Origin: Nematostella vectensis
Taxonomy: Eukaryota
Assembly: GCF_932526225.1 (NCBI RefSeq)
Contig: NC_064047.1
Coordinates: 1,753,027 to 1,817,026, forward strand
Length of the DNA stretch: 64,000 nucleotides
Direction of reading: 5' to 3'
Position numbers and translations under genes: made by a program. Shown here piece after piece: positions 17,878-64,000 of the stretch (position 1 is its first letter; each line of letters opens with the position of its first letter). The notes beneath the pieces were generated by a model. It was not told the DNA's origin, did not search any database, and was given only the letters and a program-made list of their open reading frames with translations.

Positions 17878-17986
17878 CTCAAATGATATCATAGTGTTAA
17901 ATGTATTCTCGCTGCACCGCCCCGTGGAGGACATCAATTACAGGCATGGCCTCGGCAGACAAAAGCTACTATTCCATGCTTCTAGG
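17878..17986 (+). CDS. PARP4: PARP4-like exon 10, the start of the PARP catalytic fold (His of the H-Y-E triad)
   Basis: ..GRQKLLFHASR resembles ..NVRPLLHGSP. Donor agg|gtaagt. The 3' end of this exon plus its donor is the seed of the downstream 61-bp minisatellite. Confidence 0.85.
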
Positions 17987-20420
17987 GTAAGTCATTCTAT
18001 AAAGACATTACCTCGGCAGACAAAAGCTACTATTCCATGCTTCTAGGGTAAGTCATTCTATAAAGACATAACCTCGGCAGACAAAAGCTACTATTCCATG
18101 CTTTTAGGGTAAGTCATTCTAAAGACATTACCTCGGCAGACAAAAGCTACCATTCCATGCTTCTAGGGTAAGTCATTCTATAAAGACATTACCTCACCGG
18201 ACAAAAACTACTATTTCATGCTTTTAGGGTAAGTCATTCTATAAGACATTACCTCGGCAGACAAAAACTACTATTCCATGCTTCTAGGGTAAGTAATTCT
18301 ATAAAGACATTACCTCGGCAGACAAAAACTACTATTCCATGCTTCTAGGGTAAGTCATTCTATAAAGACATTACCTCACCGGACAAAGGCTACTATTCCA
18401 TGCTTTTAGGGTAAGTAATTCTATAAAGACATTACCTCGGCAGACAAAAGCTATTATTCCATGCTTCTAGGGTAAGTCATTCTATAAAGACATTACCTCG
18501 GCAGACAAAAACTACTATTCCATGCTTCTAGGGTAAGTCATTCTATAAAGACATTACCTCACCGGACAAAAACTACTATTTCATGCTTTTAGGGTAAGTC
18601 ATTCTATAAAGACATTACCTCACCGGACAAAGGCTACTATTCCATGCTTCTAGGGTAAGTCATTCTATAAAGACATTACCTCACCGGACAAAGGCTACTA
18701 TTCCATGCTTCTAGGGTAAGTCATTCTATAAAGACATTACCTCGGCAGACAAAAGCTACTATTCCATGCTTCTAGGGTAAGTCATTCTATAAAGACATTA
18801 CCTCGGCAGACAAAGGCTACTATTCCATGCTTCTAGGGTAAGTCATTCTATAAAGACATTACCTCGGCAGACAAAAGCTACTATTCCATGCTTTTAGGGT
18901 AAGTCATTCTATAAAGACATTACCTCACCGGACAAAGGCTACTATTCCATGCTTCTAGGGTAAGTCATTCTATAAAGACATTACCTCGGCAGACAAAAAC
19001 TACCATTCCATGCTTCTAGGGTAAGTCATTCTATAAAGACATTACCTCGGCAGACAAAAGCTACCATTCCATGCTTCTAGGGTAAGTCATTCTATAAAGA
19101 CATTACCTCAGCAGACAAAAGCTATTATTCCATGCTTCTAGGGTAAGTCATTCTATAAAGACATTACCTCGGCAGACAAAGGCTACTATTCCATGCTTCT
19201 AGGGTAAGTCATTCTATAAAGACATTACCTCGGCAGACAAAAGCTACCATTCCATGCTTCTAGGGTAAGTCATTCTATAAAGACATTACCTCGGCAGACA
19301 AAGGCTACTATTCCATGCTTCTAGGGTAAGTCATTCTATAAAGACATTACCTCGGCAGACAAAAGCTACTATTCCATGCTTTTAGGGTAAGTCATTCTAT
19401 AAAGACATTACCTCACCGGACAAAGGCTACTATTCCATGCTTCTAGGGTAAGTCATTCTATAAAGACATTACCTCGGCAGACAAAAACTACCATTCCATG
19501 CTTCTAGGGTAAGTCATTCTATAAAGACATTACCTCGGCAGACAAAAGCTACCATTCCATGCTTCTAGGGTAAGTCATTCTATAAAGACATTACCTCGGC
19601 AGACAAAAGCTATTATTCCATGCTTCTAGGGTAAGTCATTCTATAAAGACATTACCTCGGCAGACAAAAACTACTATTCCATGCTTCTAGGGTAAGTCAT
19701 TCTATAAAGACATTACCTCACCGGACAAAGGCTACTATTCCATGCTTCTAGGGTAAGTCATTCTATAAAGACATTACCTTTGCAGACAAAGGCTACTATT
19801 CCATGCTTCTAGGGTAAGTCATTCTATAAAGGCATTACCTCGGCAGACAAAGGCTACTATTCCATGCTTCTAGGGTAAGTCATTCTATAAAGACATTACC
19901 TCGGCAGACAAAAGCTACTATTCCATGCTTTTAGGGTAAGTCATTCTATAAAGACATTACCTCACCGGACAACGCTACTATTCCATGCTTTTAGGGTAAG
20001 TCATTCTATAAAGACATTACCTCGGCAGACAAAAGCTACTATTCCATGCTTCTAGGGTAAGTCATTCTATAAAGACATTACCTCACCGGACAAAAACTAC
20101 TATTTCTTGTTTTTGGGGTAAGTCATTCTATAAAGACATTACCTCGGCAGACAAAAACTACTATTCCATGCTTCTAGGGTAAGTCATTCTATAAAGACAT
20201 TACCTCGGCAGAAAAAAAAAACTACTATTCCATGCTTCTAGGGTAAGTCATTCTATAAAGACATTACCTCGGCAGACAAAAGCTACTATTTCATGCTTCT
20301 AGGGTAAGTCATTCGATAAATATATAACCTAGGCGGACAAAAGCTACTATTCCATTCGTTTTAGGGTAAATCATTCTATAAAGACATTGCCTATAGGCGG
20401 ACAAAATCTACTATTCCATT
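17950..20420. repeat. Minisatellite of about 61 bp x about 40 copies, derived from the exon 10 3' end plus its splice donor
   Basis: Unit cctcggcagacaaaagctactattccatgcttctagg|gtaagtcattctataaagacattac is identical to the last 37 nt of exon 10 plus 24 nt of intron. Every copy carries an agg|gtaagt donor. Confidence 0.95.
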
Positions 20421-20619
20421 CTTGTAGGGCAATTTATTTTTTACAAACATGGTTACAAACTAGGTTTTCTTCGCCTCTAAGGGTAAGGGGTTTTTTGTTC
20501 TTTTTCCGGCTTGAAATAAAAGAAAGACAATGATATCGTGAGGACTTTTGATGAAAGTATAGTCGACAAAGAGACAATAAGCTATTAAGTCTAACTATTT
20601 CTGTTTTGTTGTATCGCAG

Positions 20620-20648
20620 GTCAGGAATTTTGTTGGAATACTCTCGAG
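20620..20648 (+). CDS. PARP4: PARP4-like exon 11 (29-bp micro-exon)
   Basis: VRNFVGILS resembles VQNIVGILCRG. Bounded by cgcag| and |gtaaat. It restores the phase between exons 10 and 12. Confidence 0.75.
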
Positions 20649-22479: not shown

Positions 22480-22578
22480 GAATATCGTAAGTTTACTAAA
22501 GATCTGACGCGACCGCCTGACGGGTATAATAGCGTCATAGGTGTCAAGGCGACCGAGACGCAGCCATCAGACTTCAAG
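22480..22578 (+). CDS. PARP4: PARP4-like exon 14 (catalytic)
   Basis: ..TRPPDGYNSVIGVKATE..SDFK resembles ..TEAPPGYDSVHGVSQTA..TDFE. The exon end plus donor is duplicated downstream. Confidence 0.85.
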
Positions 22579-22589
22579 GTAACGCCTCA

Positions 22590-23150
22590 CTACTACACAG
22601 TAGGTCACGGTAGACTATGTCACGACATGATATGTCACGGTAGGATATAGGTTATGTTACATTATGGTGTAGGGATCAAGGCGACCAAACCATCAGCCTT
22701 CAAGGTGACGCCTTACTAGTAGGTCACGGTAGAATATGACACGTAACAAACGGCGGGTTAAAGGTATCAAAGCGACCAAACCATCAGCCTTCAAGGTGAC
22801 GCCTTATTAGTAGGTCACGGTAGAATATGACACGTAACAAACGGCGGGTTAAAGGTATCAAAGCGACCGAACCATCAGACTTCAATTTGATGCCTTACTA
22901 CATACTAGGTCACGCTAGAACATATGTCACGACACAATATGTCACGGTACAACATATGTAACGACACGATATGTCACGGTAGTACATATGTAACGACACG
23001 ATATGTCACGGTATAACTTATGTAACGACACGATATGTCACGGTAGAACATATGTAACGACACGATATGTCACGGTAGAACATATGTAACGACACGATAT
23101 GTCACGGTAGAACATATGTAACGACACGATATGTCACGGTGAGGTCATAG
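22590..23150. repeat. Compound tandem repeats in PARP4-like intron 14: about 95-bp units that re-copy the exon 14 end and its donor (..caaggcgaccaaaccatcagccttcaag|gtgacgcc), and a 33-bp unit (gtaacgacacgatatgtcacggtagaacatat) x 6
   Basis: Direct inspection. The first unit overlaps exon 14's last 30 nt. Confidence 0.85.
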
Positions 23151-23261: not shown

Positions 23262-23349
23262 GATGACGAATTTGTTGTTTACGACACCAAGCAGCAGCAG
23301 ATGAGGTATGTCATCTTCACCCGTCAAATACTTATTCGGGATGACTGTG
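23262..23349 (+). CDS. PARP4: PARP4-like exon 15 (catalytic Glu). The alternative donor is at 23385.
   Basis: DDEFVVYDTKQQQMRYVIF resembles DDEFVVYKTNQVKMKYIIKF. A 36-bp in-frame tandem duplication carries a second gtagag donor. Confidence 0.75.
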
Positions 23350-23488
23350 GTAGAGAGCCTCAAATACTTATTCGGGATGACTGTGGTAGAGGGCTGATCG
23401 AGTCGCACTGAAACTGAGGATAAACATTTTTTATGCATCACACCTTCTCTAGCCCCTTCTATTTTTTGCGCTTTGTTTACATGGTGCT

Positions 23489-23935
<447 letters not shown>

Positions 23936-24287
23936 TCTGTCTACGCGGATGTTTAACGCAATGTTCGTTTATTTAAATGGAAATAAATTACAGTAAAATG
24001 TGTTTAATATTTGTGACTTTCGTCAGATATCTTGTGGAATTTGCTCTACCGGAAGATAACATAATCGCCCGCGATAATGTGTCCGTTGACAGCGGATTTG
24101 TTGAAGAGCCGCTCGATAATGAAGGTTAGACAGCAAATATGTGTTGTTAAAGTAAAAGTTATAAAAACAATCATAATAAGATGTTATATATAATCTAAAA
24201 TAATAATCTAATCATAATAAAATCCAAAAAAAACCTTTTTTTTCGTAGTTTATCGCTTTATCAGTAATGAAGTTTTTTTCTATGCAG

Positions 24288-25926: not shown

Positions 25927-26132
25927 GACGTGTTCACCGTGAACGTAGGTAACCTACCCCCAGCTGCAAGCGTGCTCATTAAGATCACCTATGTTGCCGA
26001 ACTCACCGTGGAGGGAGAACTCATCTGCTTTCGGTTACCAGGAAGCGTGGCGCCATGGCAGCGCACGCAAGCGCATGATGACGTCACTCAAACAGATGTG
26101 GATACTATTTGTGTTGATGAGGAGAATCAAAG
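25927..26132 (+). CDS. PARP4: PARP4-like exon 19 (VIT)
   Basis: DVFTVNVGNLPPAASVLIKITYVAEL.. resembles DVFTVSVGNLPPKAKVLIKITYITEL... Donor aag|gttaag. It is followed by the 4.65-kb satellite intron. Confidence 0.9.
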
Positions 26133-26139
26133 GTTAAGT

Positions 26140-29100
26140 TTCTATATATATCCTATTTACATGTACATCAATTGCGCCCCTTTCACATGTACATCCTGTA
26201 TACCCCTTTTACATGTACATCCTGTATACCCCTTACACATGCACATCCTGTATACCCCTTACACATGTACATCCTGTGTACCCCTTACACATATACATCC
26301 TGTATACCCCTTACACATGTACATTCTGTGTACCCCTTACACATGTACATACTGTGTACCCCTTACACATGTACATCCTGTGTACCCCTTACACATATAC
26401 ATCCTGTATACCCCTTACACATTTACATTCTGTGCACCCCTTACACATATACATTCTGTATACCCCTTTCACGGGTACATCCTGTGTACCCCTTACACAT
26501 GTACATCATGTGTACCCCTTACACATGTACATCCTGTGTACCCCTTACACATGTGCCTCATGTGTACCCCTTTCACATGTACATCCTGTATACCCCTTAC
26601 ACATGTACATCCTGTGTACCCCTTTCACATATACATCATGTATACCACTTTCACGGGTACATCCTGTGTACCCCTTTCACATGTACATTCTGTATACCCC
26701 TTTCACGGGTACATCCTGTGTACCCCTTACACATGTCCCTCATGTGTACCCCTTTCACATGTACATCATGTGTATTCCTTACACATGTGCATCCTGTGTA
26801 CCCCTTTCACATGTACATCCTGTATACCCCTTACACATGTACATCCTGTGTACCACTTTCACATATACATCATGTATACCACTTTCACGGGTACATCCTG
26901 TGTACCCCTTTCACATGTACATCCTGTATACCCCTTTCACGGGTACATCCTGTGTACCCCTTACACATGTCCCTCATGTGTACCCCTTTCACATGTACAT
27001 CATGTGTATTCCTTACACATGTGCATCCTGTGTACCCCTCTCACATGTACATCATGTGTACCCCTTACACATGTACATCATGTGTACCCCTTACACATGT
27101 ACATCCTGTGTACCCCTTTCACATGTACATCCTGTGTACCCCTCTCACATGTACATCCGGTGTACCCCTTACACATGTACATCCTGTGTACCACTTACAC
27201 ATGTACATCATGTGTACCCCTTACACATGTACATCCTGTGTACCACTTTCACATGTACATCATGTGTACCCCTTACACATGTACATCATGTGTACCCCTT
27301 TCACATGTACATGCTGTCTACCCCTTACACATGTACATCCTGTCTACCCCTCTCACATGTACATCATGTGTATTCCTTACACATGTACATCCTGTGTACC
27401 GCTTTCACATGTACATCCTGTGTACCCCTTACACATGTACATCATGTGTACCCCTTACACCTGTACATCCTGTGTACCCCTTACACATGTACATCCTGTG
27501 TACCCCTTACACATGTACATCCTGTGTACCCCTTTCACATGTACATCCTGTGTACCCCTTACACATGTACATCCTGTGTACCCCTTTAACATGTACATCA
27601 TGTGTACCCCTTTAACATGTACATCTTGTGTACCCCTTACACATGGATATCATGTGTACCCCTTTCACATGTACATCCTGTGTACCCCTTACACATGTAC
27701 ATCATGTGTTCCCTTCACATGTACATCCTGTGTACCCCTTACACATGTACATCATGTGTACCCCATCACATGTACATCCTGTGTTCTCCTTACACATGGA
27801 CGTCATGTGTACCCTTTCACATGTACATCCTGTGTTCTCCTTACACATGGACGTCATGTATACCCTTTCACATGTACAACCGGTGTTCCTGTTACACATG
27901 TGCATCCTGTGTACCCCTTTCACATGTTCATCCCGTGTACCCCCTTACACATGTACATACTGTGTATCCCTTACACATGTACATCCTGTGTACCACTTTC
28001 ACATGTACATCATGTGTACCCCTTACACATGTACATCATGTGTACCCCTTTCACATGTACATGCTGTCTACCCCTTACACATGTACATCCTGTCTACCCC
28101 TCTCACATGTACATCATGTGTACCCCTTACACATGTACATCCTGTGTACCGCTTTCACATGTACATCCTGTGTTCCCCTTACACATGTACATCATGTGTA
28201 CCCCTTACACATGTACATCCTGTATACCCCTTTTACATGTACATCCTGTGTACCACTTACACATGTACATCATGTGTACCCCATCACATGTACATCCTGT
28301 GTACCCCTTACACATATACATCCTGTATACCCCTTACACATGTACATTCTGTGTACCCCTTACACATGTACATACTGTGTACCCCTTACACATGTACATC
28401 CTGTATACCCCTTACACATGTACATTCTGTGTACCCCTTACACATATACATCCTGTATACCCCTTACACATTTACATTCTGTGCACCCCTTACACATATA
28501 CATTCTGTATACCCCTTTCACGGGTACATCCTGTGTACCCCTTACACATGTACATCATGTGTACCCCTTACACATGTACATCCTGTGTACCCCTTACACA
28601 TGTGCCTCATGTGTACCCCTTTCACATGTACATCCTGTATACCCCTTACACATGTACATCCTGTGTACCCCTTTCACATATACATCATGTATACCACTTT
28701 CACGGGTACATCCTGTGTACCCCTTTCACATGTACATTCTGTATACCCCTTTCACGGGTACATCCTGTGTACCCCTTACACATGTCCCTCATGTGTACCC
28801 CTTTCACATGTACATCATGTGTATTCCTTACACATGTGCATCCTGTGTACCCCTTTCACATGTACATCCTGTATACCCCTTACACATGTACATCCTGTGT
28901 ACCACTTTCACATATACATCATGTATACCACTTTCACGGGTACATCCTGTGTACCCCTTTCACATGTACATCCTGTATACCCCTTTCACGGGTACATCCT
29001 GTGTACCCCTTACACATGTCCCTCATGTGTACCCCTTTCACATGTACATCATGTGTATTCCTTACACATGTGCATCCTGTGTACCCCTCTCACATGTACA

Positions 29101-30800
29101 TCATGTGTACCCCTTACACATGTACATCATGTGTACCCCTTACACATGTACATCCTGTGTACCCCTTTCACATGTACATCCTGTGTACCCCTCTCACATG
29201 TACATCCGGTGTACCCCTTACACATGTACATCCTGTGTACCACTTACACATGTACATCATGTGTACCCCCTACACATGTACATCCTGTGTACCACTTTCA
29301 CATGTACATCATGTGTACCCCTTACACATGTACATCATGTGTACCCCTTTCACATGTACATGCTGTCTACCCCTTACACATGTACATCCTGTCTACCCCT
29401 CTCACATGTACATCATGTGTATTCCTTACACATGTACATCCTGTGTACCGCTTTCACATGTACATCCTGTGTACCCCTTACACATGTACATCATGTGTAC
29501 CCCTTACACCTGTACATCCTGTGTACCCCTTACACATGTACATCCTGTGTACCCCTTACACATGTACATCCTGTGTACCCCTTTCACATGTACATCCTGT
29601 GTACCCCTTACACATGTACATCCTGTGTACCCCTTTAACATGTACATCATGTGTACCCCTTTAACATGTACATCCTGTGTACCCCTTACACATGGATATC
29701 ATGTGTACCCCTTTCACATGTACATCCTGTGTACCCCTTACACATGTACATCATGTGTTCCCTTCACATGTACATCCTGTGTACCCCTTACACATGTACA
29801 TCATGTGTACCCCATCACATGTACATCCTGTGTTCTCCTTACACATGGACGTCATGTGTACCCTTTCACATGTACATCCTGTGTTCTCCTTACACATGGA
29901 CGTCATGTATACCCTTTCACATGTACAACCGGTGTTCCTGTTACACATGTGCATCCTGTGTACCCCTTTCACATGTTCATCCCGTGTACCCCCTTACACA
30001 TGTACATACTGTGTATCCCTTACACATGTACATCCTGTGTACCACTTTCACATGTACATCATGTGTACCCCTTACACATGTACATCATGTGTACCCCTTT
30101 CACATGTACATGCTGTCTACCCCTTACACATGTACATCCTGTCTACCCCTCTCACATGTACATCATGTGTACCCCTTACACATGTACATCCTGTGTACCG
30201 CTTTCACATGTACATCCTGTGTTCCCCTTACACATGTACATCATGTGTACCCCTTACACATGTACATCCTGTGTACCCCTTACACATGTACATCCTGTGT
30301 ACCCCTTACACATGTACATCCTGTGTACCCCTTTCACATGTACATCCTGTGTACCCCTTACACATGTACATCCTGTGTACCCCTTTAACATGTACATCAT
30401 GTGTACCCCTTTAACATGTACATCCTGTGTACCCCTTACACATGGATATCATGTGTACCCCTTTCACATGTACATCCTGTGTACCCCTTACACATGTACA
30501 TCATGTGTTCCCTTCACATGTACATCCTTTGTACCCCTTACACATGTACATCATGTGTACCCCATCACATGTACATCCTGTGTTCTCCTTACACATGGAC
30601 GTCATGTATACCCTTTCACATGTACATCCTGTGTTCTCCTTACACATGGACGTCATGTATACCCTTTCACATGTACAACCGGTGTTCCTGTTACACATGT
30701 GCATCCTGTGTACCCCTTTCACATGTTCATCCCGTGTACCCCCTTACACATGTACATACTGTGTATCCCTTACAAAATGTAAATCCGATGTACCCCCATC
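26140..30800. repeat. 26-bp satellite (consensus ccccttacacatgtacatcctgtgta), about 178 copies, organised in a 2049-bp higher-order repeat, inside PARP4-like intron 19
   Basis: Identical ORF segments recur at offsets of 2049 bp (27702/29751; 27602/29651), and a third copy of the 27702/29751 segment begins 750 bp after the second (29751/30501). The 26-bp unit has variants ..tttcac.., ..catgtg.. and ..cgggtac... Confidence 0.95.
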
Positions 30801-30853: not shown

Positions 30854-30935
30854 CAACACCTCAGTTCAGGTCTCTGTTGAAATGCCATTTGAGATCCGTG
30901 CTATTCTTTGCCCTGGACACGATGTCAAGGTCAAG
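30854..30935 (+). CDS. PARP4: PARP4-like exon 20
   Basis: SNTSVQVSVEMPFEIRAIL..KVK resembles ..SFSLTMSIEMPYVIEFI... Confidence 0.8.
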
Positions 30936-32184: not shown

Positions 32185-32422
32185 AGCAGTGCTCAACTAT
32201 TAAAGCCACATTGTCACCAGTTTACTTCCGGAGGTCCGTCGGAAACCTCAACCGTTAAAAGACAAAAGAATCTATTAGAATCCGCGCTATAAAACGGGCC
32301 ATCCGCTCTAAACTATCAGTCAAATCCTTTTAAATATTGAAATATTTTCCGCAGTTTCCGTTAAAAATCATCAGAGATAGTTACGTAATTGACCGGAAGT
32401 AAACTGGTAACAAGGCGGCTTT
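32185..32422. mobile_element. MITE family A (about 240-250 bp; 27-bp TIR aagccgcattgtcaccagtttacttccgg; TA target-site duplication, Tc1/mariner-Stowaway-like), copy 1
   Basis: The TIRs are present at both ends and are flanked by TA. Confidence 0.85.
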
Positions 32423-32706
32423 AATAACGGGAATAATGGGAAGGATATCGTGCATAAGGCCTTAGTACATTACTTTTAAATTTATTTGTTGTGTGTCTCT
32501 TTATCTTATTTGCTCTTTTCTCGTGGTTTTAGACTGCATTTAGTTGGTTGGTTTAGTTGCATTTAGTTGGTCTGTCCGTTATATATCTTACTCTTATTCA
32601 GTAGTAGCACGTGAAAGGGAGGAATGCAAAGGGAGGCACAAGGCACTCCAACAAAACCAAAAGCGATCCAAACTTATTAGAACTCTGTCCCTTACATTTC
32701 TTTTAG

Positions 32707-33474: not shown

Positions 33475-34045
33475 GGCAATGTCACCAGTTTACTTCCGGC
33501 GATTACGTAACAGTCTCAGATGATTTTTTACGGAAACGCGAAAAAACGCGGATGGCCTGTTGAATGTCCTGTCAATCCCTAGTATCAATTAACAAACTAT
33601 TTTGTCGATATTTAACAGAATTTATGGAGAAGATTACGAATATCGACGTCTTTTTGCCCGTTTCGGCCTAAAAGTGGACATTTTGGCGATTACAATTTTA
33701 CTTCCGGTCGAATATACGGCGGAAGTAAATTCACCCTATAGGTTTTAACACTAATTTGATGGTTTTTCCGTTTAAATAAAACGATCTTCATAGATTTCAA
33801 AGGCTACGAAAAATATATCATCGAAACAATTGATCTCTTCGACATATTATCACTGCAAAAAATCTTGGATGCAAATATTCTCAAACTTAGTTTGTTTTGA
33901 GTATAAGTCTAGGTCACTTTTTCACGTACTCTACGCCAGATTTTCTATTATATCCGGATAATAGTGCGGATTATAATAGGTTATTTTGTCTTTTGTCGGT
34001 TGAGGTTTCAATCGGCCCTCCAGAAGTAAACTGGTGACAATGCGG
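33475..34045. mobile_element. MITE family A copy 2, about 570 bp, with extra internal sequence (composite or nested)
   Basis: Outer TIRs caatgtcaccagtttacttccgg .. ccagaagtaaactggtgacaatgcggc. An internal partial TIR pair lies at about 33700-33740. Confidence 0.7.
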
Positions 34046-34125
34046 CTACAATTTCTGTTTTTGATAGTCAACAAATGTACGTTTTAGCAAACTGTTGGAT
34101 TGTTTGATCACGTGATTTGTTTTAG

Positions 34126-34535: not shown

Positions 34536-34610
34536 GCTCCACATGATATTGTGTCGCTTTTCAACGGTTCAAGACAAGTAGTCTACGGACTCGTCGACAA
34601 CTGTACTCAG
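34536..34610 (+). CDS. PARP4: PARP4-like exon 28
   Basis: ..VVYGLVDNCTQ resembles ..LVYGFIPHCTQ. Confidence 0.8.
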
Positions 34611-34937
34611 GTGCGTTGCTAGGTGATGATGACAATTGTATCCAAGTGCGTTGCTAGGTGATGATTGGAAGTTGCTAACTTCTCTATGAAAATTTGAGGC
34701 AGTACAGAAGAACGGACATCCGGGGTTACCATGAATCGCCATGAAAAATATCCTAGCAGTTTTATTGCTAGATATTTAATTGCGCAGATTATATAAGAAT
34801 GGCAGATTAAATAGCCTTTGTACCATCGCTTGTGTACTACTTACTTATTGTGAACTCCCTTACAATGCTTCAACGCTATTTTTGTTGTTTGCTCTATAAT
34901 AAGAGTTACCAGCTGGTTTAAAGTTCCTCTCTTTCAG

Positions 34938-39959: not shown

Positions 39960-41707
39960 GTAAATGAACACTTTTCCTTTATTTCTGTTAGGGGTCGAAC
40001 ACTATGAATGAACACTTTTCCTTTATTTCTGTTAGGGATCGAACACTATGAATGAACACTTTTCCTTTATTTCTGTTAGGGATCGAACACTATGAATGAA
40101 CACTTTTCCTTTATTTCTATTAGGGATCGAACACTATGAATGAACACTTTTCCTTTATTTCTGTTAGGGATCGAACACTATGAATGAACACTTTTCCTTT
40201 ATTTCTGTTAGGAATCGAACACTATGAATGAACACTTTTCCTTTATTTCTGTTAGGAATCGCACACTATGAATGAACACTTTTCCTTTATTTCTGTTAGG
40301 GATCGAACATTATGAATGAACACTTTTCCTTTATTTCTGTTAGGGATCGCACACTATGAATGAACACTTTTCCTTTATTTCTATTAGGGATCGAACACTA
40401 TGAATGAACGCTTTTCCTTTATTTCTGTTAGGGATCGAACACTATGAATGAACACTTTTCCTTTATTTCTGTTAGGAATCGCACACTATGAATGAACACT
40501 TTTCCTTTATTTCTGTTAGGAATCGCACACTATGAATGAACACTTTTCCTTTATTTCTGTTAGGGATCGAACATTATGAATGAACACTTTTCCTTTATTT
40601 CTGTTAGGGATCGAACACTATGAATGAACACTTTTCCTTTATTTCTGTTAGGGATCGAACACTATGAATGAACACTTCTCCTTTATTTCTATTAGGGATC
40701 GAACACTATGAATGAACACTTTTCCTTTATTTCTGTTAGAGATCGCACACTATGAATGAACACTTTTCCTTTATTTCTATTAGGGATCGAACACTATGAA
40801 TGAACACTTTTCCTTTATTTCTGTTAGGAATCGCACACTATGAATGAACACTTTTCCTTTATTTCTGTTAGGAATCGCACACTATGAATGAACACTTTTC
40901 CTTTATTTCTGTTAGGGATCGAACATTATGAATGAACACTTTTCCTTTATTTCTGTTAGGGATCGAACACTATGAATGAACACTTTTTCTTTATTTCTGT
41001 TAGGGATCGAACACTATGAATGAACACTTCTCCTTTATTTCTATTAGGGATCGAACACTATGAATGAACACTTTTCCTTTATTTCTGTTAGGGATCGAAC
41101 CCTATGAATGAACACTTTTCCTTTATTTCTGTTAGGGATCGAACACTATGAATGAACACTTTTCCTTTATTTCTGTTAGGGATCGAACACTATAAATGAA
41201 CACTTTTCCTTTATTTCTGTTAGGGATCGCACACTATGAATGAGCACTTTTCCTTTATTTCTGTTAGGGATCGAACACTATGAATGAACACTTTTCCTTT
41301 ATTTCTATTAGGGATCGAACACTATGAATGAACACTTTTCCTTTATTTCTGTTAGGAATCGCACACTATGAATGAACACTTTTCCTTTATTTCTATTAGG
41401 GATCGAACACTATGAATGAACACTTTTCCTTTATTTCTGTTAGGAATCGCACACTATGAATGAACACTTTTCCTTTATTTCTGTTAGGGATCGAACACTA
41501 TGAATGAACACTTTTCCTTTATTTCTGTTAGGGATCGCACACTATGAATGAACACTTTTCCTTTATTTCTGTTAGGGATCGAACACTATGAATGAACACT
41601 TTTCCTTTATTTCTGTTAGGGATCGAACACTATGAATGAACACTTTTCCTTTATTTCTGTTAGGGATCGAACACTATGAATGAACACTTTTCCTTTATTT
41701 CTGTTAG
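39960..41707. repeat. Minisatellite of about 44 bp x about 40 copies, derived from the exon 35 acceptor (polypyrimidine tract, AG, and the first exon bases)
   Basis: Unit tgaatgaacacttttcctttatttctgttag|ggatcgaacacta. The true junction reads ..tttctgttag|gtatcgaacacgatg. Confidence 0.9.
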
Positions 41708-41798
41708 GTATCGAACACGATGTCTCCTCGCGATCCAACTTTGACGATCTGCTTGAGCATTTGCGACAGGACAGTTCGTATAGCGACGAAGTGGGGAG
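41708..41798 (+). CDS. PARP4: PARP4-like exon 35. Its acceptor and first about 12 bp seed the upstream 44-bp minisatellite.
   Basis: Bounded by ctgttag| and ag|gtaggg. Only one frame is open (IEHDVSSRSNFDDLLEHLRQDSSYSDEVG), and it is the phase-compatible one. Confidence 0.5.
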
Positions 41799-43289: not shown

Positions 43290-43393
43290 GCACTTGTTAT
43301 CGATGTTGGCTCCCACATGTGGAAGGTTGGGTTCGCAGGTGACGACGCGCCTAAGGGTGTGTTCCCGCCAATTGTCGGCCGACCTCGCCACCA
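43290..43393 (+). CDS. Actin-derived cassette exon A, spliced in-frame into the PARP4-like gene
   Basis: [34 protein letters not shown] matches actin residues about 8-41 ([35 protein letters not shown]). It ends at the conserved actin 41/42 intron position. Bounded by ttttag| and cag|gtaaac. Phase 1 in, phase 0 out. Confidence 0.6.
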
Positions 43394-43401
43394 GGTAAAC
43401 T

Positions 43402-43850: not shown

Positions 43851-44178
43851 AAACTCTCTATAACCCTGTTTACATTTTTATAAGGAAATTACATACCATG
43901 TTCGGAAGTCCATTTTAACCTTTCCCCCTGACTTTGACTATCGACCTAGAACTGTGTTAAACGATAGTTTTAGCGTAAAATATAAAAGATTATACCCATG
44001 GAGCCAAACTAGTTGATAACCTGTTTGAAGCGTGCAGTTTTGTCTAGTTCCGAAAGCAGCCCCTAAGAAGAAGATTAGGAGGACTATTCTGACTGGGATA
44101 GCGAAAAAAAAAGAAAGAATAGGAAACTGTTTTTAGATCTAGAACTGTATTCATGCGTGTGCTGTCCTTTGCCTGCAG

Positions 44179-44371
44179 GGCGTGATGGTAGGAATGGGGC
44201 AAAAGGACTCTTATGTGGGTTGGGAGGCACATTCCAAGCGTGGTATTCTTTCTCTCTCTACCCCCCAAAAACGTGAAGCTCGCCCCACTCCTCCCTTGCA
44301 AGATCGCCCCCCTCCTCCCTTGCAAGATCGGCCGCCGCCTGCGATGGAAGGAAGGGCTTTGACGAAGGACC
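44179..44371 (+). CDS. Actin-derived cassette exon B: actin residues about 42-65, then a divergent Pro-rich stretch
   Basis: [26 protein letters not shown] matches actin [26 protein letters not shown], followed by [32 protein letters not shown]... Bounded by ctgcag| and c|gtaagt. Exons A plus B total 297 bp, a multiple of three. Confidence 0.55.
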
Positions 44372-47870: not shown

Positions 47871-49312
47871 CCCCTCTTACGGATATACTCAGTGCTAATA
47901 CCGGACTCCTCCCATTCGCAGTCGCCAACATACCGTCACCCAAACCGCGGCCACCTAGGGCCTCTAAGATAGCCGCACCACCGGCTCCATCCCTACAAGC
48001 TGTCTGTATCGACCTCCCGGAACCTCCCCTGAAGGCTGGGGACTCACCGTTGAAAAGATCTGTAAAAGCACCACTACCACCTCCTCCACCTCAACAAGCT
48101 TCCCGGATCGACTACCGGGCTTCATATGGAGCCGCACCACCGGCTCCATCCCTACAAGCTGTCTGTATCGACCTCCCGGAACCTCCCCTGAAGGCTGGGG
48201 ACTCACCGTTGAAAAGATCTGTAAAAAAACCACTACCACCTCCTCCACCTCAACAAGCTGCCCGGATCGACTACCGGGCTTCATATGGCGCTCCACCTCT
48301 TCCTCCGAAGAGAGGTGGAGGCCCACCTCTTCCTCCGAAGAGAGTCGCCAACATACCGTCACCCAAACCGCGGCCACCTAGGGCCTCTAAGATAGCCGCA
48401 CCACTGGCTCCATCCCTACAAGCTGTCTGTATCGACCTCCCGGAACCTCCCCTGAAGGCTGGGGACTCACCGTTGAAAAGATCTGTAAAAGCACCACTAC
48501 CACCTCCTCCACCTCAACAAGCTTCCCGGATCGACTACCGGGCTTCATATGGAGCCGCACCACCGGCTCCATCCCTACAAGCTGTCTGTATCGACCTCCC
48601 GGAACCTCCCCTGAAGGCTGGGGACTCACCGTTGAAAAGATCTGTAAAAAAACCACTACCACCTCCTCCACCTCAACAAGCTGCCCGGATCAACTACCGG
48701 GCTTCATATGGCGCTCCACCTCTTCCTCCGAAGAGAGGTGGAGGCCCACCTCTTCCTCCGAAGAGAGGTGGAGGCCCACCTCTCTTCGGTGCCATGGCTT
48801 TGAGGACAGGTGCCCCCTCAAAGGCATCGAAACCAAGTTTTGGTGGAAGAGGTCAACCACAGGTGTTCGCAACATCTGCTAGTGAAATCCTTCACCCGAG
48901 GCTAGCCCGAACTCCATCTGAACTCGCGCCCAAAGGAGTCCCATCACAGACTAATGATGAAGCTCCAGTTTTTATGTCCCGACTACAACTGTTGGAAAGT
49001 ATTCGCGCGAAGAAAAAGACCAAGGAGACCGACAGAGAAGATATTATGAAACAGGATGACTCAGGTGAGGCCGATATTTTACGCAGAGAAGCCCACCAAC
49101 ATAGCATGGAAACAGAGCTAGAAGCTGATAGGAATGAGGCTGAAATGGGTGTTCGTCCGGTACCACGAAAGCGTGGTAAGAGGATGCTGGAAAAGAAGGC
49201 GGCGGAGCAGAAAAAGGAGGCGATGGAAGAGCCCTCGGAATCGTTGCAGAACAGAATGCGGAAATGGATGACCGCTGACAAGTTGTTGGAGCTGTTTGCG
49301 TCTCAGCATAAC
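47871..49312 (+). CDS. PARP4: PARP4-like exon 40: Pro-rich, with an internal 423-bp in-frame tandem duplication and a WH2-like stretch
   Basis: Acceptor cccccag| (alternative at 47921, same phase). Open frame of 480 codons. The 141-aa unit VANIPSPKPRPP..PPLPPKRGGGPPLPPKR occurs twice (47921-48343 and 48344-48766). Donor aac|gtaagt. The PARP4 tail is likewise Pro-rich. Confidence 0.65.
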
Positions 49313-50842: not shown

Positions 50843-50945
50843 GTACATTTGATGATAGGGGTGCGCTGAGGAGCCTGGAACATTGAGCGCCCCGCAGGCT
50901 CAAATTCCATAAACAACAACCAAACATTTAACCAAGCGTTTATTA

Positions 50946-51197
50946 AAGCCGCATTGTCACCAGTTTACTTCCGGTCGATTACGTAACAATTTCCGATGAT
51001 TTTTAACGGAAAACGCGAAAAATATTTCAAAATATTTAAACCAGTGTGTCTATTGGAAGTTTCTTTGAGAATGTGATTTATAATTTTAGAGCGGATGGCC
51101 TGTTAAATATCTCGGATTCTAATAGATCCTTTTGTCCTTTAACCGTTGAGGTTTTCGTCGGACCTCCGGAAGTAAATTGGTGACAATGCGGCTTTAG
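50946..51197. mobile_element. MITE family A copy 3
   Basis: Bounded by TA|aagccgcattgtcacc..ggtgacaatgcggctt|TA. Confidence 0.85.
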
Positions 51198-54063
51198 GTG
51201 CGTCCATAATTTCACGTAAACTTGATATCAAAGAGTATATAATAATAAAGTAATAGATAAAGACTATTTGCGTTAAGACTTGTCCCTAAACAGTGTGGCC
51301 ATCTTACGAAAATCTCAAAATGAAAGAGTTTGTGTTTAGGCCACGTCAAATGCAAGACAAATAGCCTTTCTTTTTTATCTTGCTGTCCTCCGTTGTATTG
51401 CGACCCGCGTTTTCAAAACACGATTTGTTTTGGTTTTCTGTTCCGTCAGTAAAACCATTTTGATCCAATCAGAGTCTTGCTTTGTGCACTTCCCTGGATA
51501 TCTTCTGGGCGACAGTAAAAGAATTAACAAAAAAAGGAGAAATAAACTTTGTTTACATTACATTGTTTACCACATAGTTTTAATGATTAACTATGATTTT
51601 TTACTGACGGAACTATGATCAACACACCATGTCATTGTCATTCATCTTTGTTACTTAAAAAAAAAAGATAATACTAAAATAATCACAGCAAACAATATTT
51701 TTTACTCTTGTTATTTTGCGTCTGTCAACTTTTTATTGGATTTTCGCGATTAAATCTCAAAACTGCGATTTTGATCATTCTGTCACGCAACTCCCGTCAC
51801 GTGACTAATATTTAGAGACAAGTAACTCATCGGCGTCTATTTGAGCAAATGACGAATGTGCGCTAATGAGAGGAAATGCCAACTGAACACTTCAAATCGG
51901 AATCTTCAGGACCGTTTACTTTCTTTGCCAAAACGACTTATCAATATTTACACACGTTTTCTTTATAAGAACGTAAAATTTTCAGCTTTGGCTAGGCCTT
52001 GTTTTAGAGCATTCTAAGGCTGAAAATGTTCTTGAATTTTAGTTTTTTATTTAGGTATTCGAAAATAAAAAAAAATGAATTATTACAAGAGAATAACACA
52101 AATTTTCTAGAGTAATAAGTAGAAAAGTTGTTATTATGAACACGATTGATTCTGCGTTTCAGAACGCATCACACAGAGTCTAGAGCTTCGTTTGTTACTA
52201 TGCGCTATAATTTCCAACATTTGCCTTTTCGTAATAAGAAATGTTTTCATCTTGGTAAATTGAATTAAGAGCATCTGTCTTTTCCGCTGAGTAACTATTA
52301 ACACATTTTCTTGCGCAAAGGAAATTCATTTTAAGATCCACCTGGAAGGTTAGATATAAAAAGAAGAATAAGAAACAGAGAAAGCCAAAAGAGAAAAAAG
52401 GACAGAGATACTCGGAGATGACAGAGAGGCAAAGATAGGGAACAAGATGTGAGGCCACATAGGGGACGAATGTTTAATAAAGCAAGAGTGGAGGCAAACC
52501 CTCGTTGCCAATCCCCCGACAATTCTTTAATCTCACATGGACCGAATGGAGGAATTCTAATCAACAAACTACATAACGGCATCCGTGAATCTAAAGCTTT
52601 CAATTAATTCTACTATAGACGACTAATGGATAAATGTCATTCCGTCAGAACAGTGCGTCTAAATAGTATGATTCATCGCTTGATTTGCCAAAGGCTTCCG
52701 TCAGATCCCGTCGGACTTTGTTCCCCCAGGTCCAGTTTCCTGTCATCCGCATTTCAGACTTCTTGTAGAGCAGAAAGCGAATGTCTGTGACGCTTGAAAA
52801 ATACCGCTCTTCGATGCCTGTGTTCACGCGCACAAATAAATATCTATCCAGGTTATCTAGTTTGAGTTTTCATCTAACAATGGTACCTTTATAAGCGGCT
52901 TGTAACCGTTTAAAATACGTTTAGCAACGAGCAAGAGAGCAAGCTTTAGCTGAGCATGTTAAAAATATCAAGCAAAAGTATGCTTGATTAGAATTTAGCA
53001 AGCGATAAACACTATTTACTTTCTTAATCAGAATGAATGATTCCATTGTCGATGTTTCTTTATCATTGTCAAAATCAAATATCTATCTTTTTCACTAAGC
53101 TTTAAAGATGGAGATGCAGCATAAAAAATACAAAATATTGAAAAAAAAATTGAAAATGTTGCTTAAAGGGGAACGCTACTTTTGACGCTAAACCAACCCC
53201 AGTCTTCCCTGCGTGATCTCGCTTTTAAATTTTAGCTTTGCTTTACTTACAGAGACCAGCTTGTTCTGTGTTAGAATAAAAAAAGATGTAAAGTGTCCGT
53301 ATTCAAAGGATGTTCAGTCGAGACGAATTACCGCATCAGTGTAAAAAATACGAATACCGCCACCACGGTGATGGGATACTTTCCTTCGACCCACAGTCTC
53401 CCAGACATAAAACATGGAAACCCGGAAGAATGTTTTTTTTTTGTAGTTACCAAGTTAGACAAAAAATATCAGATATTGACCCATAATTTCTTTCAACGGT
53501 TTGGTGAAATAAATACTGATCGGGTATCACAAAGGAAACACGGTTTGTGTAGAAATCGCTTCATTTCTTGTTAATGGGAAATAAAACGTTTGGCATGAAG
53601 TTTTTCTTTTTGGTCGCTCTTACGTAACGGTCGCCACTGCGGCCTAGAGGTGAAAATCCGCGTATTCGTTAGGGAAATTGATCTTCCTAGCAACAGGAAT
53701 AGCCTAAAAGCGAAAATGAATCGAAAACGCGTTAACGTGATTGAGACCTGTTTTGTTTCCCATCGTAGTTTTTAGGCAAAGGATGTTGTGCGAGGGATTG
53801 AAATACACGTTTAGTTACTCCAAAGGAAAAACTAACTGACTCATCGCTAGAATTATAATAATTACGCTTCGTCACGTGGTCCAAAGCCAAAGGAAGTTGT
53901 AAGGCTGCTTATATGTTAGCGACAGCGGTGACCTTAGGCCAGTACACACAGGATGTTCAGCGAGAGAAGTATAGGAGAACCGTCACAAAACCTCCGTCCA
54001 TAAGTACAGGAATGTGATCTTTACGTGTAGAACTCTCTTTAAGAGAGCTTTCATGTTGTTTTA

Positions 54064-57950: not shown

Positions 57951-58695
57951 TGATATTTGTAAAGCGGTTGCATTTATGCGGACTATTCTCTATATGACTG
58001 TTTACTATGAGGCTAAGACAACCATGCATCATTATTCTGATCACTGATGGCCTACACGCGCGGCAGGCTCTTATTTTGTTGGTGCCCTGTGGGTTGAGCC
58101 CACAGGGAGTGTAGCCTTGGGCGAGGCTACCGAGACCCATGGAAATCGTAAAGGAACACAGAGAAAAAATAATGACAAATTTGATAGTGGAAACTAAAAA
58201 TGAAAAGACATTCAGTGTATCATCCTGTTTTCTATGGCTAGACCTCGCACTCACGCTTTCTGGCACGAAAATATCGACAAGTTCCGCTGAACCTGTTTAA
58301 AATTCCTGTTTGCTTTATACCAGCCCCCAAAACTGTATCTATTTCCTCCTATCACAGCTGTCTTTCCCCTCCCAACCATTCCCCCAATAAATGCTGATCT
58401 TCAAGAAGAAATCCATTGTGCTTGTTTAGATTTTCCAAGATTTTGAATTCTCCGGCACACTTCACAGAAACGCCGTGTGCTTTCATGATGCTTGCGAAGT
58501 CTAGCCATGAAAAACATCTTGTAATACCGCTAATAGAATCTTGTTGTTCCCAAAGGTCCTGAAAAGAAGGGGGGTGGGGGGGTGGGTGGGATCTGCATTT
58601 AAAACTGTTAGGTAAAATACCGTTTTTAAAATGAAGCACTCAATTCTTGCGGGTAATGTTATCAGGTAATCACTTGACGGTTCCAATTCTTAATT

Positions 58696-59796
58696 TTGCC
58701 ATATTCTGATGTTCATGCTAGGCTAATCGTAGACGGAGAGCTAACTCGTGCATTTGAATACAACTGTGGTGTCAAGCAAGGATGTAAGTTAGCACCAACT
58801 CTATTCGGCATCTATGCTGCTGTCCTGCTCTGGTTGGCCTTTAATAAAATTGAACACACCTGCAGCATCAAGATAAGATTCCGATTTGATGGTAATCTCT
58901 TCGATCTTCGCAGGCTCAAAGCAAAAACAAAAGTCCTTACGGAATTCATCAGAGAGGCACAGTACGCTGACGATATCGCCTTATTTAGCGATACCCCAGA
59001 GGGTCTGCAGTCTTTACTTACATCGTACAATGAACTTGCTAAGAGAATGGGGATGCGCATTAACACTAAAACGACGGAGACTATGTGTATTGGTAATACT
59101 GCCGACTTTTATGTTGATGGCATTAAGCTGGTCAATGTTACTCACTTTAAATACCTTGGTAGTATCCTGTCAAGTGACTGCTCAATGAGAGCGGAGCTCA
59201 CATCTCGTATACAAGCTGTATCATGTGCTTACGGTCGCCTTCGAAAGAGAGTTTTCGACTCACGTGATCTCACCGTACCAACCAAGATCGCTGTTTATAA
59301 TCAATGTCTAATGCCTCTCTTATTGTACGGTAGTGAGACATGGACTGTATATCAGCATGAAGTTAGAGAACTTCGTACTCTGCAACAACGCCATTTACGC
59401 CTAATCCTCAAGATCAAGTGGGATGACTATATAAGCAATGAAGACGTCCTCCGTCGTGCAAACGTAGATGATATTGAAACAAAATTAGCTAGAAATCGTC
59501 TCCGCTGGCTTGGTCACCTCTGCCGAATGGACGATGACAGAGTGCCTAAGCAGCTGTTATTTTCGGAGCTAGAACACGGGTCTCGCCCAGTTGGTCGTCC
59601 TAAACTAAGATTCAAGGACATTTTGAAAAAAGACCTCAAAATTGGATGCGTCCTTGAAGCGTGGAACTATCATGTACATAATAGAAAGGAATGGAGGGCG
59701 ATCACAAATAACATCTGCACGTCATACGACAAAAGAAGATATGAAACCTATTTAAAACAAAGGGAAGCTCGCCGTAAAAGGGCGGAGAACAGTTAA
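58696..59796 (+). CDS. LINE ORF2 fragment (C-terminal half of the reverse transcriptase, plus C-terminal region)
   Basis: GVKQGCKLAPTLFGIY (RT motif), YADDIALF (catalytic YxDD box), ..RLRWLGHLCRM..GRPKLRFKDIL.. C-terminal motif typical of RTE/CR1/L2-type LINEs. 366 codons without a stop. Confidence 0.85.
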   Translation: MPYSDVHARLIVDGELTRAFEYNCGVKQGCKLAPTLFGIYAAVLLWLAFNKIEHTCSIKIRFRFDGNLFDLRRLKAKTKVLTEFIREAQYADDIALFSDTPEGLQSLLTSYNELAKRMGMRINTKTTETMCIGNTADFYVDGIKLVNVTHFKYLGSILSSDCSMRAELTSRIQAVSCAYGRLRKRVFDSRDLTVPTKIAVYNQCLMPLLLYGSETWTVYQHEVRELRTLQQRHLRLILKIKWDDYISNEDVLRRANVDDIETKLARNRLRWLGHLCRMDDDRVPKQLLFSELEHGSRPVGRPKLRFKDILKKDLKIGCVLEAWNYHVHNRKEWRAITNNICTSYDKRRYETYLKQREARRKRAENS

Positions 59797-63309: not shown

Positions 63310-63341
63310 GTACAGTGTTATGATACAGTTATACTACTTAA

Positions 63342-63592
63342 AGCCGCATTGTCACCAGTTTACTTCCGGAGGTCCGACAGAAACCTCAACCGTTAAAAGA
63401 CAAAAGAATCTACTAGAATCCGAGATATTTAACAGGCCATCCGCTCTAAATTATCAATCACATCCTTAAAGAAACTTCCAATACCCACTACTTTCCATAT
63501 TTTGAAATATTTTTCGCTTCTTCCGTTAAAAATCATCGGAAATTGTTACGTAATCCACCGGAAGTAAACTGGTGACAATGCGGCTTTAAGCA
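63342..63592. mobile_element. MITE family A copy 4, inserted 32 bp downstream of DGCR6-like exon 3
   Basis: Bounded by TA|aagccgcattg..caatgcggctt|TA. Its internal sequence is collinear with copy 1. Confidence 0.85.
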
Positions 63593-63639: not shown

Positions 63640-64000
63640 GGGTACAGTACAAGAAACACAAGGAAGAGATAGAGAAGAACCAACACCGCCCACACCACAT
63701 TCCTATAGTGCAGAAGACAAATGAGGAAGACAAGGAAGAGATAGAGAAGAACCAACACCGCCCACACCACATTCCTATAGTGGAGAAGACAAATGAGGAA
63801 GACAAGGAAGAGATAGAGAAGAACCAACACCGCCCACACCACATTCCTATAGTGGAGAAGACAAATGAGGAAGACAAGGAAGAGATAGAGAAGAACCAAC
63901 ACCGCCCACACCACATTCCTATAGTGGAGAAGACAAATGAGGAAGACAAGGAAGAGATAGAGAAGAACCAACACCGCCCACACCACATTCCTATAGTGCA
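63640..64000. repeat. 72-bp tandem array (at least 5 copies, running to the window end) that copies part of DGCR6-like exon 3 in frame (EEIEKNQHRPHHIPIVEKTNEEDK)n
   Basis: The array unit equals bp about 63232-63303 of exon 3. The period is 72, a multiple of three. The array is separated from the exon by a MITE insertion. Confidence 0.9.

Follow-up and report, generated by a model that had tools for sequence, protein, structure and literature searches.

How does an intron come to hold some forty tandem copies of its own 5' boundary, and what does the spliceosome make of them? This question is raised by intron 10 of a PARP4-like gene in Nematostella vectensis, where a 61-bp minisatellite begins inside exon 10 and fills most of the intron behind it. 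The gene was analysed within a stretch of 64,000 nucleotides (contig NC_064047.1, positions 1,753,027 to 1,817,026 of the forward strand), hereafter the window; positions are those of the window, a slash marks an exon-intron boundary, and exon numbers follow an earlier reading of the letters alone, referred to below as the sequence-only reading. We regard the array as an ordinary intronic minisatellite of the junction-spanning type, seeded by a duplication of the exon 10 junction and expanded by exchange, with its extra donors probably silent, and we give this reading a probability of about 0.7.

Exon 10 encodes (G)SNDIIVLNVFSLHRPVEDINYRHGLGRQKLLFHASR, which contains the 'LLFHxS' histidine motif of PARP, catalytic histidine included, and the peptide spliced from the surrounding exons matches the Pfam PARP family with E=1e-26. 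The spliced peptide of the same gene gave 31 protein-database matches, some of them combining PARP with VIT_2 and VIT, and among them a Solemya velum protein and a frog 'PARP4-like' protein; no near-identical protein was found in that database, the best match reaching 45% over the full length and 66% over part of it. Moreover, tblastn with the 2006-amino-acid intronless open reading frame (ORF) of the homolog L005 placed collinear exons from 12842 to 37747, which, as we read them, would begin with a BRCT-like part and continue across VIT and vWA. Judged by these matches, the predicted order of BRCT, PARP catalytic domain, VIT and vWA is that of a PARP4 (vault PARP)-like gene.

Tandem Repeats Finder (TRF) reported the array at 17950-20429, with a period of 61, 40.6 copies, 92% matches and a score of 4171, and cutting it at the donor motif gave 41 units spaced by 59-64 nt, nearly all by 61. 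Each unit is built from the 37 nt that end exon 10 (CCTCGG...TTCTAGG, encoding ..GLGRQKLLFHASR) and the first 24 nt of the intron (GTAAGTCATTCTATAAAGACATTA, that is, GTAAGT and 18 more bases). Unit 1 (17950-18010), which reads CCTCGGCAGACAAAAGCTACTATTCCATGCTTCTAGG/GTAAGTCATTCTATAAAGACATTA, is identical to the array consensus, and its comparison with exon 10 bears out this composition, as the sequence-only reading had described it. The claim that some 40 consensus donors lie downstream of the authentic one also holds, as GGTAAGT is kept in 39 of the 41 units, with GTAAAT in one and no site in another. Counted as decamers, the donors are AGGGTAAGTC in 36 units, AGGGTAAGTA in two, GGGGTAAGTC and AGGGTAAATC in one each, and lost in one. 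Overall, the array makes up about 94% of intron 10. Decay rises toward the 3' edge through units 39-41, and a further copy behind them, unit 42, is barely recognisable (alignment score 11, p of about 0.08 taken alone) and lies roughly in array phase; the decay of units 39-42 is the usual edge of a minisatellite. The extent given earlier was thus confirmed for the array itself and corrected at two points, with exon 10 ending at 17986 and the faint extra copy added (Table 1). Units differ from one another mainly in the exon-derived 37 nt (unit positions 5-8, 15-16, 20-21, 25 and 33), where one of the variants is a block, GGCA/ACCG; the donor and the 24 bases taken from the intron hardly vary.

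The consequences for splicing can be read from the codons. A productive messenger RNA requires splicing from donor 1 to the acceptor at 20619. Translation that continues past donor 1 meets AGG GTA AGT CAT TCT ATA AAG ACA TTA CCT CGG CAG ACA AAA GCT ACT ATT CCA TGC TTC TAG, and because this in-frame TAG lies in the first added unit, every downstream donor yields a premature stop, beyond the mere frameshift that had been noted earlier for extensions of n x 61 bp. Stop codons occur in two of the three frames of every unit, and the frame-shifted TAG is present in all units but unit 36. The array as a hidden coding repeat was rejected, no frame being open across units. By analogy with human F7, donor 1 is probably used almost exclusively, and leakage to the downstream donors would likely feed nonsense-mediated decay; the larger exon that each more distal donor would define (170, 231, ... 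nt) should further disfavour the distal sites. The array would have no function of its own, its side effect being about 39 extra consensus donors (AGG/GTAAGT) behind exon sequence. A 255-nt fold (exon plus 2.5 units) was no stabler than its shuffles (z=0.46), and gave no sign of an RNA structure masking the downstream donors; a hairpin pairing the donor with UUACC is predicted for every unit, unit 1 included, and an Rfam scan of the window returned no match. The unit boundary CATTACCTCGGCAG resembles the 5' end of the U1 small nuclear RNA by eye, a likeness that we judge coincidental, the stretch being mostly conserved coding sequence.

Recursive (ratchet-point) splice sites, of the form (Y)nAG/GTAAGT, are found in long introns of Drosophila and vertebrates. 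Each unit of the present array likewise looks like an acceptor with a donor behind it (CTACTATTCCATGCTTCTAG-G-GTAAGT), setting a pyrimidine tract and TAG beside GTAAGT. The difference lies in an extra G between AG and GT (TTCTAG-G-GTAAGT), which adds 1 nt per recursive step; as the frame would be broken each time, clean recursive splicing is excluded, and an array of recursive splice sites was rejected.

Minisatellites that span an exon-intron junction are a described class. In intron 7 of human F7, a 37-bp unit is repeated 5-9 times, its first monomer lying across the boundary between exon 7 and intron 7 (Borensztajn et al. 2006, PMC1557585), and 50 F7 constructs showed that the pseudo-sites are functional yet silent, the most upstream site being chosen in a 5'->3' process (PMC1557585). 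Other cases are intron 2 of human IFI6 (6-16), with 25 pseudo-donor sites, intron 13 of CBS, LMNB2 (100 bp x 10-15) and intron 4 of PDGF (PDGFA; 81 bp x 16-18) (PMC1557585). The PARP4-like array belongs to this class, being larger, equipped with a near-consensus donor and non-mammalian: its units of 61 bp, within the usual 10-100 bp or so, run head-to-tail, the first monomer is contiguous with a coding exon, and the donor is reiterated. As in F7, the first unit holds the exon end and donor, identical pseudo-donors follow the authentic one, and the array lies wholly on the intron side. In F7, by contrast, 4 nt of each unit are exonic, the donor is weak (UGG/gugggu), the copies number 5-9 and usage was measured, whereas the PARP4-like array has 37 nt of exon per unit, a near-consensus donor, about 40 copies and a usage that we infer. 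With IFI6, CBS, LMNB2 and PDGF it shares the many donors (up to 26 in IFI6) reiterated by a junction-spanning minisatellite; it differs from them in that every extension here carries a stop codon.

The array was probably seeded by a tandem duplication whose ends lay 37 nt within the PARP-catalytic exon and 24 nt within the next intron, and which became fixed in this lineage. Unequal exchange or replication slippage, often involving several units at once, would then have raised the number of copies to about 42. The copy that adjoins the exon would stay intact because it is coding, and those at the 3' edge would decay because they rarely join in exchange. In support of exchange, the string of unit types contains ...LMKNOPLO LMKNOIGK..., and the self-identity of units peaks at a shift of eight (488 bp), at 0.960 compared with 0.941-0.957 at other shifts; this eight-unit higher-order repeat indicates that multi-unit blocks were duplicated, as in unequal exchange. 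Moreover, three further junction-spanning duplications in the same gene (see below) indicate that such events simply happen here.

Several observations nevertheless weigh against this reading. All donors are equally strong, with seven Watson-Crick pairs to U1 by our own count, and some leakage to donor 2 or further is possible; in F7, pseudo-sites that match the consensus perfectly can compete and shift splicing, and IFI6 and CBS make use of their second and third sites too (PMC1557585). In addition, across 35 units the exon-derived 37 nt hold 73 differences and the intron-derived 24 nt only 22, an exon part about twice as variable among units, driven by a few block variants, that a purely neutral model does not predict. 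Finally, a copy of microexon 11 and, next to the acceptor, a stretch resembling exon 10 lie in the tail of the intron, and a simple duplication on the donor side explains neither. The uniformity of the donor hexamer and the 24 intron-derived bases relative to the exon part is what one might expect of a functional array, either as tunable decoy donors that divert a share of transcripts to nonsense-mediated decay, copy number setting PARP4 dosage, or as a cluster of U1 sites that protects or regulates the transcript; the frame-shifted TAG kept everywhere but in unit 36 and the second 40-copy splice-site array in the same gene could be read in the same way. We consider such a function very unlikely, as uniformity is expected from recent homogenisation, the homologous introns of L007, L009 and L010 are free of any such array, the array gave no structural signal or Rfam match, and the extra sites are silent in the best-studied precedent (PMC1557585). 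It is even less probable that a real array owes its length or arrangement to mis-assembled repetitive reads. A 2.5-kb array of 61-bp units is difficult for short-read assembly, and three arrays in the window have about 40 or about 179 copies; but the units differ at defined positions, in an ordered higher-order pattern with a graded, decayed edge, the flanks are unique and the exon frame intact, and collapse or duplication errors usually yield identical copies.

How old the intron itself is can be judged from homologs. In Solemya (L001), the frog Nanorana (L003), L002, L004 and eight ORF fragments, ...LLFHxSxxxNFVGILSR is uninterrupted and intron 10 is missing; the intron after GILS-R (phase 2) is common to this gene, Solemya and the frog, and some of the homologs that lack intron 10 do have its neighbours, introns 9 and 11. 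A metagenome scan found an intron at the identical position and phase in L007, L009 and L010, with lengths of 364, 688 and 2422 nt and the junction AAG^GTG, and the same 29-nt microexon with its acceptor in L008 and L012, which rules out an intron unique to this lineage. Synonymous sites between these three homologs and this gene are saturated, with third-position identity at 8-11 of 26-27. No junction-derived repeat was found in the homologous introns of L007, L009 and L010, and conservation between their first 32 nt and those of intron 10 was not significant. From these comparisons, intron 10 is apparently old and restricted to some lineages, and the array specific to this one. The 2.4-kb intron of L010 has unrelated minisatellites of its own (133 bp x 2.4 at 1384-1704 and 36 bp x 6 at 1860-2074), and tandem repeats seem to arise readily in this intron in more than one lineage.

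The tail of the intron was analysed by permissive alignments with empirical nulls. Its last 166 nt hold approximately three decayed periods, in which GT stands at 20430, 20483 and 20538, and the exon proper begins at 20620. A periodic template of 'exon-10 end + exon-11 start' describes the tail (20454-20619) much better than the array consensus does (18 vs 8), a fit matched by none of 600 genomic windows (maximum 11), none of 1000 templates with a shuffled exon-11 part and none of 1000 with a shuffled exon-10 part. The microexon-11 copy within it has 21/29 identity with one gap (p<0.0005 against shuffles); a score of at least 11 for the microexon was reached in 26 of 12,792 windows, self-hits included, which we read as a handful of loci in 128 kb. 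The last 58 nt of the intron, where CTAAC resembles a branch point, were aligned globally with the last 37 nt of exon 10, and none of 2000 shuffles scored as high (p=0.004 against genomic windows). Among 28 introns, intron 10 shows the highest likeness of its 3' end to the end of exon 10 (all-vs-all P=0.0066), a similarity inflated because that exon end, being branch-point- and pyrimidine-tract-like, has the look of a 3' splice site and so resembles real intron ends. nhmmer with the unit profile gave no match in the tail, neither the exon-11 copy nor the exon-10-like end was seen in L007, L009 or L010, and homology of the flanks around the exon-11 copy was not significant in either register. 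The tail has no second copy in the window and no transposon signature, and a transposon- or introner-derived intron was rejected, since the unit is local exon sequence.

In the AGGT model, a contiguous exon segment is tandemly duplicated and thereby creates an intron (PMC3265369, PMC4974935). Applied here (Rogers model), intron 10 would have been created when about 61 contiguous exonic nucleotides (the final 37 nt of today's exon 10 and the initial 24 nt of today's exon 11) were duplicated in tandem, the GT that opens a Val codon becoming the donor and the pyrimidine-rich stretch that codes for LLFHAS, together with an AG, becoming the acceptor; the array seen now would have re-expanded later from that repeat, with the selected exon copy as its anchor. 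The tail would fit, as it follows the template of exon-10 end and exon-11 start far better than the array consensus and places the exon-11 copy directly before an exon-10-end-like stretch that runs up to the acceptor, and intron 10 is top or joint top of the 28 introns on both 'opposite-flank' measures. Moreover, there is no intron at this site in the bivalve, the frog, L002, L004 and the eight ORF fragments, although flanking introns are partly shared, and the junction AAG^GT of the relatives is a perfect AG/GT. In three respects the case is like the model: the 3' end of the intron resembles that of the upstream exon, the start of the downstream exon has a copy inside the intron, and several outgroups lack the intron. 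We nevertheless think it unlikely that intron 10 is made up wholly of a 61-nt piece of the PARP catalytic exon, once contiguous and then copied in tandem, by creation or by re-creation at a proto-splice site, inflated 40-fold, and equally doubtful that fossil copies of both exon flanks are, under this reading, still legible at the intron 3' end. The same intron and microexon occur in L007, L009 and L010, with saturated synonymous sites and none of these signals, so that the intron looks far older than the recognisable copies. The junction AGG^GTC lacks AG/GT, and exact excision would require a further change; an ancestral AG/GT is possible, to go by the relatives' AAG^GTG. The intron part of the array agrees with exon 11 at only 12 of 24 positions, an agreement that is joint top of the 28 introns but loses significance when GT.AG is discounted. 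In addition, the 21/29 copy of exon 11 sits in the tail, away from the intron 5' end, the stretch upstream of it is not significantly exon-10-like (p=0.33), and the exon-10 end resembles a 3' splice region, which inflates its likeness to intron ends. The case also departs from the model in that the young array duplicates a junction rather than an exon interior. Were the intron nevertheless to have arisen from a duplicated exon segment, the importance of the locus would rise, as a natural instance of intron creation by tandem duplication.

The reading that we prefer for the tail, if tentatively, is that a pre-existing intron had both of its junctions duplicated independently, the donor many times, which gave the array, and the acceptor once, with a period of about 82 nt, which gave the exon-11 copy. 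It refines the explanation of the array given above and does not replace it. In its favour, the exon-11 copy spans the whole 29-nt microexon, the same gene has a 40-copy array of an acceptor junction at its last exon, and the intron is old. On the other hand, no similarity was detected between the 52 nt that precede the copy and those that precede the real exon (p=0.93), and the exon-10-like last 58 nt are left unexplained, unless they are the last decayed unit of the array.

We then focused on the other arrays in the window, as the sequence-only reading had listed five independent arrays derived from exon boundaries and proposed a locus- or genome-specific mutational process that preferentially amplifies splice-junction segments. 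Three of the five stand, namely those at the exon 10 donor, the exon 14 donor and the acceptor of the last exon (exon 35). At exon 14 (91 bp x 2.5), the last 35 nt or so of the exon together with AAG/GTRACG recur three more times, AAG/GTGACG being kept in two of these copies and lost in one. Directly after them, at 22909-23140, lies a nested 32-bp x 7 array (GTCACGGTAGAACATATGTAACGACACGATAT), which derives from a motif early in intron 14 (22604-22648) and represents nested rounds of tandem duplication. In the acceptor array (44 bp x 40), the final unit is contiguous with the real exon at 41708. With the upstream acceptors the protein would end in ...GGIEHYE instead of ...GGIEHDVSSRSNFDDLLEHLRQDSSYSDEVGR, the last 27 residues being replaced by YE and a stop; as this concerns the last exon, the isoform would escape nonsense-mediated decay, unlike those from the donor array.

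The remaining two did not hold up. The 36-bp in-frame duplication assigned to the exon 15 donor is purely intronic, at 23326-23397: the true donor, GAG/GTATGT, is at 23305/23306 and the next exon (24027-24124) begins with RYLVEFALPEDN..., and because homologs read ...QQRIRYLIEF where the window has RYLVEFALPEDN on a separate exon, the duplication lies within the intron. That exon, encoding (R)YLVEFALPEDNIIARDNVSVDSGFVEEPLDNE, forms the end of the PARP domain and was apparently missed in the earlier exon numbering, and reading through the exon 15 donor produces a misleading 'RYVIFT'. The DGCR6-like exon 3 array has a unit internal to the exon (72 bp, 24 codons) and no splice site, and it lies about 330 nt downstream of its exon, beyond a 255-bp element resembling a miniature inverted-repeat transposable element (MITE). 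Absent from the earlier list were two junction duplications, a 35 bp x 2 repeat across the exon 29 donor and the decayed copy of microexon 11.

To evaluate the preference for junctions, ten units with the observed periods (at least 20) were placed at random on the well-supported part of the gene, with 29 exons and 57 junctions, in which arrays had been collapsed to one unit each, leaving 14.0 kb. Four of the ten arrays contain a junction, compared with 1.55 expected when any overlap is counted (P=0.05) and 0.83 when at least 10 nt on each side are required (P=0.004), values that come from a single gene with dense junctions and from a count biased by the longer detectability of copies held by selection in an exon. 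The junction excess in this gene is suggestive only; the facts behind the earlier proposal hold in part, and a junction-preferring process is not established by them. Its importance would rise if, genome-wide, tandem duplications in this organism favoured exon-intron junctions.

Altogether, the locus offers an unusually large junction-spanning minisatellite outside mammals, with about 40 equally strong consensus donors, in a gene that also has about 40 tandem acceptors at its last exon. It is a natural substrate for studying how the spliceosome chooses among identical sites (5'->3' scanning, proximity, exon definition), and a warning for gene predictors, which may extend or shift exons in such arrays.

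Table 1. Features of the PARP4-like gene that bear on the 61-bp array and on other junction duplications, in window coordinates.
Feature	Position	Strand	Evidence and remarks
Exon 10, PARP4-like gene	17878..17986	+	acceptor ttccag/, donor AGG/GTAAGT, open frame, homologs
61-bp minisatellite, units 1-41	17950..20453	+	TRF, unit table, donor counts; unit with AGG/GTAAGT
Intron 10, 2633 nt	17987..20619	+	mostly array, decayed tail after it
Degenerate unit 42 (ACAAACTAGGTTTTCTTCGCCTCTAAGG/GTAAGG...)	20454..20505	+	local alignment to unit
Decayed copy of whole microexon 11 (GTGAGGACTTTTGATGAAAGTATAGTCGAC vs GTCAGGAATTTTGTTGGAATACTCTCGAG)	20538..20567	+	alignment; 82 nt upstream of the real exon
Last 58 nt of intron 10, exon-10-end-like (TCGACAAAGAGACAATAAGCTATTA..CTAACTATTTC)	20562..20619	+	CTAAC at 20591-20595, pyrimidine tract, CAG/
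Microexon 11, 29 nt, VRNFVGILS(R)	20620..20648	+	GTCAGG...CTCGAG; donor GAG/GTAAAT; same microexon in L007-L012
Exon 14 end and donor, three further junction copies, period about 91	22544..22900	+	TRF
35-bp x 2 duplication across exon 29 donor	34596..34665	+	ACTCAG/GTGCGT, second copy CCAA/GTGCGT
Acceptor array, 44 bp x 40	39963..41722	+	unit of 29 nt intron (pyrimidine tract and TAG) and 15 nt last exon

Further repeats were observed in the window. A 26-bp x 179 minisatellite (ACATGTACATCCTGTGTACCCCTTAC) at 26159-30796 occupies nearly the whole intron between the exon end at 26132 and the exon start at 30854; it starts 27 nt past the donor, stops 57 nt short of the acceptor and contains no exon sequence. 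The MITE-like element, about 255 bp long with 36-bp terminal inverted repeats, is present in four copies of 79-91% identity (63337-63590, 50943-51199, 32196-32424 and 33476-34047), one of them in DGCR6-like intron 3 between the exon and the 72-bp array, and two in introns of the PARP4-like gene. The 72-bp array itself (63658-63998, 4.7 or more copies) runs off the end of the window and is open in frame (KEEIEKNQHRPHHIPIVEKTNEED repeated), and may represent a coding repeat that has expanded, or an alternative exon, instead of intron junk. At 58678-59793 there is a retroelement reverse-transcriptase fragment (Pfam RVT_1, E=2.5e-12), and fragments with long runs of G or C and similar flanks turn up near 1.8-2.1 kb, 35.3 kb, 39.7 kb and 57.2 kb. 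A duplication of 423 bp x 2 at 99% identity, with 159-bp subrepeats, lies in a G/C-rich stretch at 47920-48783. Finally, actin-like exons (Pfam Actin, E=5e-13) were found at 43293-43394 and 44176-44286, about 1.2 kb downstream of the poly(A) signal of the PARP4-like gene; the single 2006-amino-acid ORF of L005 (123-6140) matches both the PARP4-like and the actin-like exons, a hint that PARP4 and actin may be fused, or joined by read-through, in that organism.

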